Origin: Escherichia coli
GTDB taxonomy: Bacteria; Pseudomonadota; Gammaproteobacteria; Enterobacterales; Enterobacteriaceae
Length of the DNA: 64,000 nt
NCBI RefSeq assembly: GCF_048403405.1
Contig: NZ_CP183129.1
Direction: 5' to 3' (one strand)
A program made the position numbers and the translations under genes. Positions 14,665 to 16,574 of the stretch are shown piece by piece (position 1 is the stretch's first letter; every line of letters begins with the position of its first letter). Below the pieces are notes generated by a model. That model was not told where the DNA came from and did no database searches. It saw only the letters and a list, made by a program, of their open reading frames with translations.

Positions 14665-14994
14665 AATCGCAATAATATATTGGCTGTCTATTCATCGTGT
14701 TGATAAGATATATGTTATATGAATGTTTATTCAATGTAACGGGTGTTTTTAATGTCACTACAAGGGATTATTTGCTTACTATTAATTTCACTGCGTTCTT
14801 AAGCACGCCTTTTGTATTATAAATCCAGTCATCCTGCCCGTAGATTATCATCCTGTTTTCCCGCTTCGTTTAAATTTATTTATCAATCAATTTGACTTAA
14901 GAGGGCGGCGTGCTACATTAATAAACAGTAATATGTTTATGTAATATTAAGTCAACTATGCAACCACTACATGGTAATTGTCTAATTGCGTACG

Positions 14995-15003
14995 CAAGAC
15001 ATA
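14995..15003. repeat. Left copy of the 9-bp target-site duplication CAAGACATA
   Basis: Identical 9-mer immediately flanks both IS1 ends. Confidence 0.9.
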
Positions 15004-15018
15004 GGTAATGACTCCAAC

Positions 15019-15522
15019 TTACTGATAGTGTTTTATGTTCAGATAATGCCCGATGACCTTGTCATGCAGCTCCACCGATTTTGAGAACGACAGTGACTTC
15101 CGTCCCAGCCTTGCCAGATGTTGTCTCAGATTCAGGTTATGCCGCTCAATTCGCTGAGTGTAACGCTTGCTGATTACGTGCAGCTTTCCCTTCAGGCGGG
15201 ATTCATACAGCGGCCAGCCATCCGTCATCCATACCACGACCTCAAAGGCCGACAGCAGGCTTAGAAGACGCTCCAGTGTGGCCAGAGTGCGTTCACCGAA
15301 TACGTGCGCAACAACCGTCTTCCGGAGCCTGTCATACGCGTAAAACAGCCAGCGCTGGCGCGATTTAGCCCCGACGTATCCCCACTGTTCGTCCATTTCC
15401 GCGCAGACGATGACGTCACTGCCCGGCTGTATGCGCGAGGTTACCGACTGCGGCCTGAGTTTTTTAAATGGCGGAAAATCGTGTTGAGGCCAACGCCCAT
15501 AATGCGGGCGGTTGCCCGGCAT
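15019..15522 (-). CDS. insB: IS1 InsB (transposase C-terminal part, made as an InsAB' frameshift fusion)
   Basis: 167-aa ORF with the canonical IS1 InsB sequence. Confidence 0.9.
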
Positions 15523-15716
15523 CCAACGCCATTCATGGCCATATCAATGATTTTCTGGTGCGTACCGGGTTGAGAAGCGGTGTAAGTGAACTGCAGTTGC
15601 CATGTTTTACGGCAGTGAGAGCAGAGATAGCGCTGATGTCCGGCGGTGCTTTTGCCGTTACGCACCACCCCGTCAGTAGCTGAACAGGAGGGACAGCTGA
15701 TAGAAACAGAAGCCAC
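15441..15716 (-). CDS. insA: IS1 InsA (transposition repressor / transposase N-terminal part)
   Basis: 91-aa [26 protein letters not shown]...; overlaps insB in the -1 frame. Confidence 0.9.
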
Positions 15717-15771
15717 TGGAGCACCTCAAAAACACCATCATACACTAAATCAGTAAGTTGGCAGCATCACC

Positions 15772-15780
15772 CAAGACATA
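15772..15780. repeat. Right copy of the 9-bp target-site duplication CAAGACATA
   Basis: Identical to 14995-15003. Confidence 0.9.
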
Positions 15781-16574
15781 AATATATTCTCACCATGGTT
15801 AATGGTGAATATCGCTATTTTAATGGCGGTGATCTGGTTTTTGCGGATGCAAGCCAAATTCAAGTGGATAAGTGTGTTGAGAATTTCGTATTAGTTTCAA
15901 GAGACACGCTTTCATTATTTCTCCCGATGCTCAAGGAGGAGGCATTAAAACTTCATGCACATAAAAAAGTTCCTGCATTACTCGTTCATCACTGTACCAG
16001 AGATATTCCTGTTTTTCAGGAAGTTGCGCAACTATCGCAGAATAAGAATCTTCGCTATGCAGAAATGCTACGTAAAAGGGCATTAATCTTTGCGTTGTTA
16101 TCTGTTTTTCTTGAGGATATGCAGTTTATACCGTTACTACTGAACGTGTTGCAACCGAATATGCGAACACGAGTTTGTACGGTCATCAATAATAATATCG
16201 CCCATGAGTGGACATTAGCCCGAATCGCCAGCGAGCTGTTGATGAGTCCAAGCCTGTTAAAGAAAAAATTGCGCGAAGAAGGTACGTCATATTCACAGTT
16301 GCTTACTGAGTGTAGGATGCAGCGTGCTTTACAACTTATTGTTATATATGGTGTTTCAATTAAGCGAGTTGCAGTATCCTGTGGATATCACAGCGTGTCG
16401 TATTTTATTTACGTTTTTCGAAATTATTATGGGATGACGCCCACAGAGTATCAGGAGCGATCGGCGCAGGGATTGCCGAACCGTGACCCGGCGGCAAGTA
16501 TTGTTGCACAAGGGAATTTTTACGGCACTGACCGTTCTGCGGAAGGAATAAGATTATAGAGTTTTACTCAGACA

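Follow-up and report, generated by a model that had tools for sequence, protein, structure and literature searches.

The stretch of Escherichia coli DNA analysed here (termed the window; 64,000 nucleotides of contig NZ_CP183129.1) carries a complete copy of the insertion sequence IS1 within gadX, which encodes one of the two AraC-type regulators of the GadX-GadY-GadW circuit. The element, flanked by a perfect 9-bp target duplication, splits the gene within its sixteenth codon, and the resulting allele is very probably null in effect, because the promoter is lost, because IS1 insertions are polar (as is established for this element) and because predicted N-terminal β-strands of the protein are lost. 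The other regulator gene of the circuit, gadW, carries a 2-bp frameshift in the same strain, and both AraC-type regulators are thus predicted to be inactivated. The gadX insertion, though a new allele, belongs to a type of event that recurs and has been described before, and it points to no new mechanism. The original prediction, made from the window alone, had described the insertion; it had overlooked the gadW frameshift, the commonness of IS1 within gadX and the published precedents.

A complete IS1 within codon 16 of gadX

The insertion involves the following features:

15004-15771, minus strand (transposase): complete IS1, 768 bp, recognized by its inverted repeats, its open reading frames (ORFs) and its match to NF033558
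14995-15003: left copy of the target duplication, CAAGACATA (gadX nt 38-46), which occurs as a single copy in relatives
15772-15780: right copy of the target duplication, CAAGACATA, read directly from the sequence
15716 to 15441, minus strand: insA, 91 aa, an intact ORF
15522 to 15019, minus strand: insB' frame, open, an ORF overlapping insA
14958-15008, plus strand: gadX 5' stub, codons 1-15 and the first base of codon 16, from translation
15781-16559, plus strand: gadX remainder, codon 16 to stop; earliest start Met21 at 15795, giving a 254-aa ORF
14892-14919, plus strand: candidate gadX promoter (PgadX), TTGACT-16-TACATT with a TG extension, from a consensus scan; putative in function
13198-14598, plus strand: gadA (glutamate decarboxylase), intact, upstream of gadX and identical to the annotated gadA of strain 4621

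The element has the characteristics of the IS1 family, namely, a length of about 768 bp, imperfect terminal repeats of about 23 bp (GGTAATGAC... / GGTGATGCT...) and a target-site duplication of 8-9 bp, which here is a perfect 9 bp. It opens with GGTAATGACTCCAACTTACTGAT and closes with ATCAGTAAGTTGGCAGCATCACC; the right inverted repeat (IRR) occupies 15004-15026 and the left inverted repeat (IRL) 15749-15771, each being 23 nt in length and the two being 83% complementary. The coordinates that had been predicted for the element prove to be exact, and the two flanking 9-mers are indeed the same; the probability that two fixed 9-mers are identical by chance is 3.8e-6.

The transposase genes are intact. 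A slippery A6C motif (AAAAAAC) occurs at 15459-15465, and a -1 shift, when performed in silico, reconstructs a putative 232-aa InsAB' protein. The NCBIfam model for IS1 family transposases (NF033558) matches insA with a score of 90 bits over profile positions 1-81 and insB' with a score of 146.5 bits over positions 76-199, so that the two jointly span the entire 199-position model while each alone is partial, as is predicted for a frameshifted gene. This is the single IS1 copy within the window. It is 100% identical to the IS1 found in four other gadX insertions (those of Nord58, 1448, 30859_5#12 and STIN_95), whose copies are annotated with an intact programmed-frameshift transposase, and the same sequence also occurs on many conjugative plasmids of E. 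coli and Klebsiella.

When IS1 and one copy of the repeat are deleted in silico, gadX becomes, as anticipated, one continuous frame: an 825-nt ORF encoding 274 residues (MQPLHGNCLIAYARHKYILTMVNG...). The restored gene does not differ by a single nucleotide from the intact gadX annotated in strains 4621 and MS 69-1 (WP_001182736.1), and its product scores 595.6 bits against the NCBIfam GadX equivalog (cut-off 500), with residues 1-274 aligned to profile positions 1-274. Its setting is likewise that of gadX: the gadA-gadX-GadY-gadW-mdtFE-gadE order is that of the acid fitness island and is identical to the order in the annotated strain 4621. As it stands in the window, however, gadX is an interrupted gene, that is, a pseudogene of the GadX family. 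The predicted site, at codon 15-16, can be stated more precisely as a split after the first base of codon 16; from there the stub reads into IS1, specifying a 16-aa peptide (MQPLHGNCLIAYARHR) followed by a stop.

In the wild type, a read-through transcript from gadA runs into gadX. The candidate PgadX is now cut off from the gadX body by IS1, and the proposed separation of that body from both PgadX and gadA read-through holds at the level of the sequence, as does the direction of the transposase genes, insA and insB' both lying on the minus strand and pointing away from the gadX remainder. On the other side of the gene is an intact regulatory RNA:

16571-16684, minus strand: GadY small RNA (sRNA) gene, intact (Rfam RF00122, 150 bits versus a gathering threshold of 45, model positions 1-114)

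GadY is antisense to the gadX 3' untranslated region (UTR), starting 12 nt past the gadX stop codon; its cis target within that UTR is now located downstream of IS1.

Comparison with near-clonal relatives

The backbone of the window is that of a chuA-positive E. coli; over 6 kb, several human clinical isolates match it with 100% identity. Two of them, 4621 (from the bloodstream) and MS 69-1 (from the colon), have an empty site and an intact, annotated gadX encoding 274 residues. Strain 4621 matches the left flank (15,003 nt) at 100% identity, and the right flank (48.2 kb) is set apart from that strain by no more than the 2-bp gadW deletion and one single-nucleotide difference, so that over the roughly 63.2 kb shared by the two there are merely three differences: IS1 with its duplication, the gadW deletion and the substitution. 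The latter is intergenic (position 57879, between two DUF4049 genes; A in the window and G in strain 4621).

The IS1-gadX junction of the window was found in none of the complete RefSeq E. coli genomes, where every probe match with at least 80% coverage consisted of two pieces separated by a gap. Because no such genome has the junction, the gadX::IS1 allele appears to be restricted to this strain or to a small clade that has yet to be sampled. The transposition itself appears to be evolutionarily very recent.

A second lesion, in gadW

16928-17654, plus strand: gadW pseudogene, with a 2-bp deletion leaving ORFs of 94 and 155 aa

The gene for the GadX paralog GadW is located 369 bp downstream of gadX. 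Its deletion (CA/AC) falls between positions 17180 and 17181 (gadW nt 255-256), at the edge of a tract of six cytosines (C6), where relatives have CAGTCACCCCCCATG and the window has CAGTCCCCCCATG; the frame shifts after about residue 85. Among complete genomes matching a 70-nt probe the deletion is absent, the best identity, 97.2%, corresponding to the 2-nt gap. The same deletion is present, however, in two short-read assemblies, the locus being about 1% diverged and one of the two having an intact gadX; hence it is not an artefact of homopolymers in long reads, nor is it confined to this strain. (The 94-aa gadW fragment was also considered as a means of ordering the two lesions and was set aside, since the same deletion occurs only in loci diverged by about 1% and gives no order.) The C6 tract (nt 255-260) likewise bears -1 frameshifts in Shigella genomes with IS1 within gadW, as well as in one NCTC strain and one Logan assembly, and it appears to be a recurrent frameshift site. 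These Shigella genomes resemble the window in that the GadX/W branch decays through IS1 and through a frameshift at the same C6 tract; they differ in that IS1 lies within gadW, with gadX kept at 274 residues, whereas in the window IS1 lies within gadX and the gadW frameshift is a different, 2-bp one. Elsewhere in the island, gadA, gadE, hdeAB/D and mdtEF are identical to those of strain 4621.

What these lesions mean for the strain may be seen against the known circuit. In K-12, GadX and GadW activate gadE and bind gadA/BC (PMC7286202); GadX binds 23 sites, including all GadW sites, and represses gadW (PMC4918353). The course of events proposed here is that an active, plasmid-type IS1 transposed into the AT-rich 5' end of gadX within a chuA-positive, clinical-type clone. 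The insertion would deprive the gadX body of transcription both from PgadX and from gadA, leaving the 16-residue stub and, at most, a poorly expressed product that starts at Met21 and lacks the first two β-strands; gadW would be inactivated in the same strain by its frameshift. Neither the structural genes (gadA, hdeAB, hdeD, mdtEF) nor gadE, the gene for the central activator, is touched. From loss of function and polarity, the GadX/W branch is presumably off: GadX/W-dependent (stationary-phase) induction of gadA/BC, gadE and mdtEF would be reduced, with GadE-centred induction still possible. The strain is accordingly predicted to show weaker GadX/W-dependent, glutamate-dependent acid resistance and weaker induction of the MdtEF pump, while keeping GadE-dependent induction.

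Recurrence of IS1 insertions in gadX

The frequency of such insertions was surveyed among 5,426 complete genomes, all counts being per genome and ignoring phylogeny. Within a 1,224-nt gadX segment (39% GC), IS1 was found in at least 66 of the 5,426, at about 20 distinct sites. When a 2-kb stretch of the window served as the query, 30 genomes were found with a like-oriented IS1 in gadX or close to it; with IS1 flipped within the query, 51 further genomes were found. An apparent orientation bias, the first eight insertions all having their transposase antisense to gadX, was discarded as an artefact, since the search joins only same-strand pieces.

Junctions were mapped in 20 fetched representatives, which together with the insertion of the window gives 21. 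Three lie upstream of the gadX ATG, at -350, -104 and -74. Those within the coding sequence lie at nt 19, 22, 58, 101, 123, 153, 249, 305, 339, 453, 454, 493 (twice), 494, 505, 644 and 662, the window insertion being at nt 45. The mapped insertions have 8- or 9-bp duplications, involve several IS1 variants and occur in both orientations; none of the other surveyed genomes has IS1 at the site of the window (nt 45/46). Two of the sites reflect clonal expansions, namely, nt 101 (the SX48 clone, about 35 genomes) and nt 644 (the ECONIH4 clone, 11 genomes). The sites at nt 486-493/494/505 and the pair at nt 453 and 454 appear to be local hot spots for IS1.

At one of these places, the same 8-bp target (CGAATCGC / CGAATTGC; gadX nt 486-493) received independent insertions, in opposite orientations and in different alleles, in Nord58 and STIN_95. 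In another strain, the human isolate DA61218 (NZ_CP061206.1), the IS1 at gadX nt 494 directly abuts slp, which indicates a probable IS1-mediated deletion of gadX 3'-gadW-mdtFE-gadE-hdeDAB-yhiD...dctR; this island deletion resembles the Gad-island deletions of laboratory evolution.

Two control segments were searched in the same manner, only places of about 2,010 bases being counted as in-region. (Raw control counts at 80% coverage or more were rejected as not comparable, because they also include joined IS1 copies lying up to about 1.5 kb outside of the region.) A 1,233-nt gadE segment (35% GC) has IS1 in 9 genomes. A treF segment (55% GC) has none: 0 of 39 matches are in-region, all 39 being outside, and in the flipped orientation 0 of 6 among the matches listed (6 of 14). 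Separately, 53 complete genomes have IS1 just beyond the ends of the treF segment, for the most part in yhjB, close to it or within the treF-ccp spacer (window positions ~8900-11600), which suggests another IS1-prone spot a few kilobases from gadX.

Selection or mutational bias

We infer that the double hit reflects either selection against, or relaxed selection on, the GadX/W branch. A more specific reading, offered tentatively, is that positive selection shut down the GadX-GadW branch of this clinical E. coli clone in two steps, in which loss of GadX would derepress gadW and a second hit would then remove this back-up activator. If so, the window would be one case of a species-wide pattern (itself a rather doubtful proposition at present) in which gadX is the preferred target of loss and plasmid-borne IS1 the main mutagen. 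On this side stands the observation that gadX has been hit by IS1 at least 20 independent times, in roughly 1.2-1.5% of complete genomes, far above the frequency for the more AT-rich gadE. There is also the location of the lesions: were events to fall at random, the probability that two of three would land within 1.55 kb of 63 kb is about 0.002.

Several points weigh against this reading. First, gadX is AT-rich (39% GC), so that mutational bias is not separated from selection. Second, the gadW lesion occurs at a recurrent frameshift tract. Third, the argument from two of three differences, including its arithmetic, is post hoc, and both sites are mutation-prone. These points favour a competing explanation, which must be regarded as a serious contender even if it falls short of being probable: gadX is an IS1 hot spot, as AT-rich, H-NS-bound DNA might be, gadW suffers slippage at its C tract, and neither lesion was selected, the double hit being a neutral by-product. 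In keeping with this, the gadX region has a GC content of 36-43%, compared with about 52-55% for neighbouring genes; insertions cluster locally, at nt 453/454 and at nt 493 (twice), 494 and 505; several unrelated assemblies have -1 or -2 frameshifts at the C6 tract of gadW; and the IS1 variant of the window is abundant on conjugative plasmids. Against it, AT-richness alone does not explain the gadX excess, because the gadE segment, of equal length and more AT-rich, is hit in 9 genomes versus at least 66; of the three differences that separate 63 kb of the window from a near-clonal relative, two fall within two paralogous regulators; and gadX loss has been selected repeatedly in laboratory evolution (10.1101/063271). 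The pattern as a whole fits either tolerance of, or selection for, gadX loss, combined with purifying selection on gadE.

The laboratory precedent comes from K-12 evolved with benzoate, in which gadX::IS5, a gadX L199F substitution, a 78-bp gadX deletion and IS-mediated Gad-island deletions arose (Creamer et al., 10.1101/063271), and in which gadX mutants produced less γ-aminobutyrate (GABA) (10.1101/063271). The window resembles those lines (10.1101/063271) in losing gadX through insertion, there one of several kinds of loss that were recurrent and accompanied by a measured reduction in GABA; it differs in being a natural isolate with IS1 and a 9-bp duplication, whereas the former were laboratory K-12 under a defined selection, with IS5 and its 4-bp duplication. 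Closer in setting is the within-patient evolution of an extraintestinal E. coli, during which IS1 arose between gadX and gadW and GadA was raised (Levert et al. 2010, PMC2947995). That case shares with the window the IS1 family, the locus, a clinical background of the extraintestinal pathogenic type and a recent, micro-evolutionary character; there, however, the insertion was intergenic, with GadA up (PMC2947995), while here it interrupts the coding sequence of gadX, and loss of GadX is the predicted result.

More generally, the survey suggests that natural E. coli repeatedly loses gadX, an accessory regulator, in contrast to gadE, the central activator. The basis for this view consists of the roughly 20 independent IS1 insertions in gadX, the frameshift-prone C tract of gadW and the island deletion of one isolate. 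It is consistent with the cost of Gad expression seen in laboratory evolution and constitutes a modest population-genomic point rather than a new mechanism.

Expression of the gadX remnant

The original prediction had allowed for expression of the remnant from an IS1-derived promoter. The orientation of IS1 places IRL beside the gadX remainder, and the junction contains one such candidate:

15758-15788, plus strand: candidate weak hybrid outward promoter, with a -35 element (TTGGCA) within IRL (15758-15763) and a -10 element (TATATT) within gadX (15783-15788)

The outward -35 element is real, and to that extent the caveat stands; the promoter as a whole would be weak, since the good -10 element (TATATT, 5/6 matches) lies at a non-canonical spacing of 19 bp. 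An alternative -10 element (AAATAT) at 16 bp gives 8/12 matches, and -10 candidates at spacings of 15-18 bp score no better than 3/6. A consensus scan across the IS1-gadX junction, with spacings of 16-18 bp, called no plus-strand promoter. No Shine-Dalgarno sequence was found when one was looked for before Met21, nor is there an in-frame ATG, GTG or TTG between the upstream stop at 15681 and Met21.

Two considerations nevertheless tell against the allele being null. If used, TTGGCA-19-TATATT would start transcription at or beside the Met21 AUG and so might yield a leaderless transcript; and the C-terminal DNA-binding domain of GadX is an autonomous fold (PDB 3mkl, residues 137-255), so that a truncated GadX, if made, could keep partial activity. 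Taken together they raise the prospect that the insertion is a rewiring rather than a knockout. It is improbable that the hybrid promoter constitutively expresses a leaderless or nearly leaderless mRNA for a GadX lacking residues 1-20, and similarly hard to credit that the outcome is a partly active DNA-binding protein uncoupled from control by RpoS, H-NS and gadA. This prospect draws on the outward-facing TTGGCA of IRL, with TATATT so placed that transcription would be expected to begin at about the A of the ATG of Met21, on the autonomously folding C-terminal domain and on documented IS1 hybrid promoters (PMC8764528), as well as on an excess of early insertions: 4 of the 18 mapped within the coding sequence fall in its first 60 nt, versus 1.3 expected (Poisson P ~0.04). 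Besides the window, these are 2018-05-2CC (nt 19), DFK.1 (nt 22) and FDAARGOS_1297 (nt 58). The IS1 end of 2018-05-2CC and of DFK.1 supplies an in-frame TTG that would keep GadX from about residue 5-6, whereas the corresponding TTG of the window is out of frame.

The 19-bp spacer, the scan that called no plus-strand promoter at the junction and the missing Shine-Dalgarno sequence argue against rewiring, as does the modelled Met21 product (254 residues), which would lack both β1 and β2 of the conserved N-terminal domain; concurrent gadW inactivation points to loss of the branch rather than to a gain. The best-described parallel is instructive here. In sequence type 131 (ST131), an outward -35 element within the IS1 inverted repeat forms a hybrid promoter upstream of afaA (PMC8764528). 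The junctions are alike in that this element adjoins flanking DNA; in afaA/ST131, however, the -10 element lies at the optimal distance and transcription rose about 7 log2-fold, while in the window a good -10 element appears only at 19 bp, and IS1 was found to activate the downstream gene only at optimal spacing (PMC8764528).

The true start of gadX

That the insertion lies within codon 16 of the coding sequence follows if Met1 is the true start, and the sequence comparisons support Met1 rather than Met21. Ten haplotypes of the gadX 5' region vary at five sites in codons 1-20, and at four of these the variation is synonymous. Orthologs as distant as about 50% identity, when aligned, share a conserved MQxxxGxCLIAYAxHxxILT, and position 21 is Thr in an E. 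albertii-type ortholog and in another ortholog, so that Met21 is not conserved. The expected wild-type start, MQ(S/P)LHGNCLIAYARHKYILTMVNG, was borne out by the full-length equivalog match together with this N-terminal conservation. An AlphaFold2 model (mean predicted local distance difference test score, pLDDT, 80.3) places β1 at residues 8-13 and β2 at residues 17-21, within a block of pLDDT ~86. (A BLASTP comparison of GadX with GadW was tried as paralogy support for Met1 and dropped, since only the C-terminal domains aligned; orthologs and synonymous sites were used instead.)

It is thus very improbable that Met21 is the real start and that the insertion lies in the 5' UTR, outside of the coding sequence. 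Gene callers do call the 254-aa product on intact metagenomic loci, the NCBI Prokaryotic Genome Annotation Pipeline (PGAP) names the Met21 ORF 'gadX' in FDAARGOS_1297, and a clear Shine-Dalgarno sequence is absent before Met1 and Met21 alike; yet the E. albertii-type ortholog and others have Thr in place of Met21, whereas Met1 and residues 2-20 are conserved, the polymorphisms in codons 1-20 are mostly (4/5) synonymous, residues 8-21 are modelled as holding two confident β-strands and the curated GadX equivalog spans residues 1-274. For the same reason that callers report it on intact loci, the 254-aa product was rejected as a marker of the insertion, for which it is not diagnostic.

PGAP annotates the IS1-disrupted gadX as intact in 2018-05-2CC, DFK.1 and FDAARGOS_1297. 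The ORF of the first two begins at a TTG inside the IS1 end (LAASPHGNC... / LESLPGNC...), and in these the GadX protein may be near full length; the annotated gadX of FDAARGOS_1297 begins at Met21. This represents an annotation pitfall, in that pipelines label Met21 remnants, or ORFs starting inside IS1, as intact gadX.

Correctness of the assembly

IS copies are a common source of misassembly in general, with nothing specific here, and the correctness of the assembly is attested solely by the perfect duplication and the flanks, which is a point against the account given above; but it is scarcely conceivable that an IS1 copy was misplaced into gadX by the assembler, given a perfect 9-bp duplication of a sequence found once in relatives, exact IS1 ends, perfectly collinear flanks and 20 other genomes with a like insertion and 8-9 bp duplications. 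The insertion is treated as real because a misassembly would not yield a target duplication with perfectly collinear flanks.

Other features of the window

The chu/shu heme-uptake cluster (window positions ~25600-35300) is embedded in the acid fitness island, with yhiD on one side and dctR/slp on the other, an arrangement that has been reported for EDL933-type islands (PMC9144400). A hypothetical gene at about 36.4-37.5 kb, annotated as frameshifted in strain 4621, is identical in the window and is thus a shared pseudogene. Downstream of gadE, between gadE and mdtE, is a match to another Rfam sRNA family:

22462-22533, minus strand: ES205 sRNA match, 105 bits versus a gathering threshold of 86

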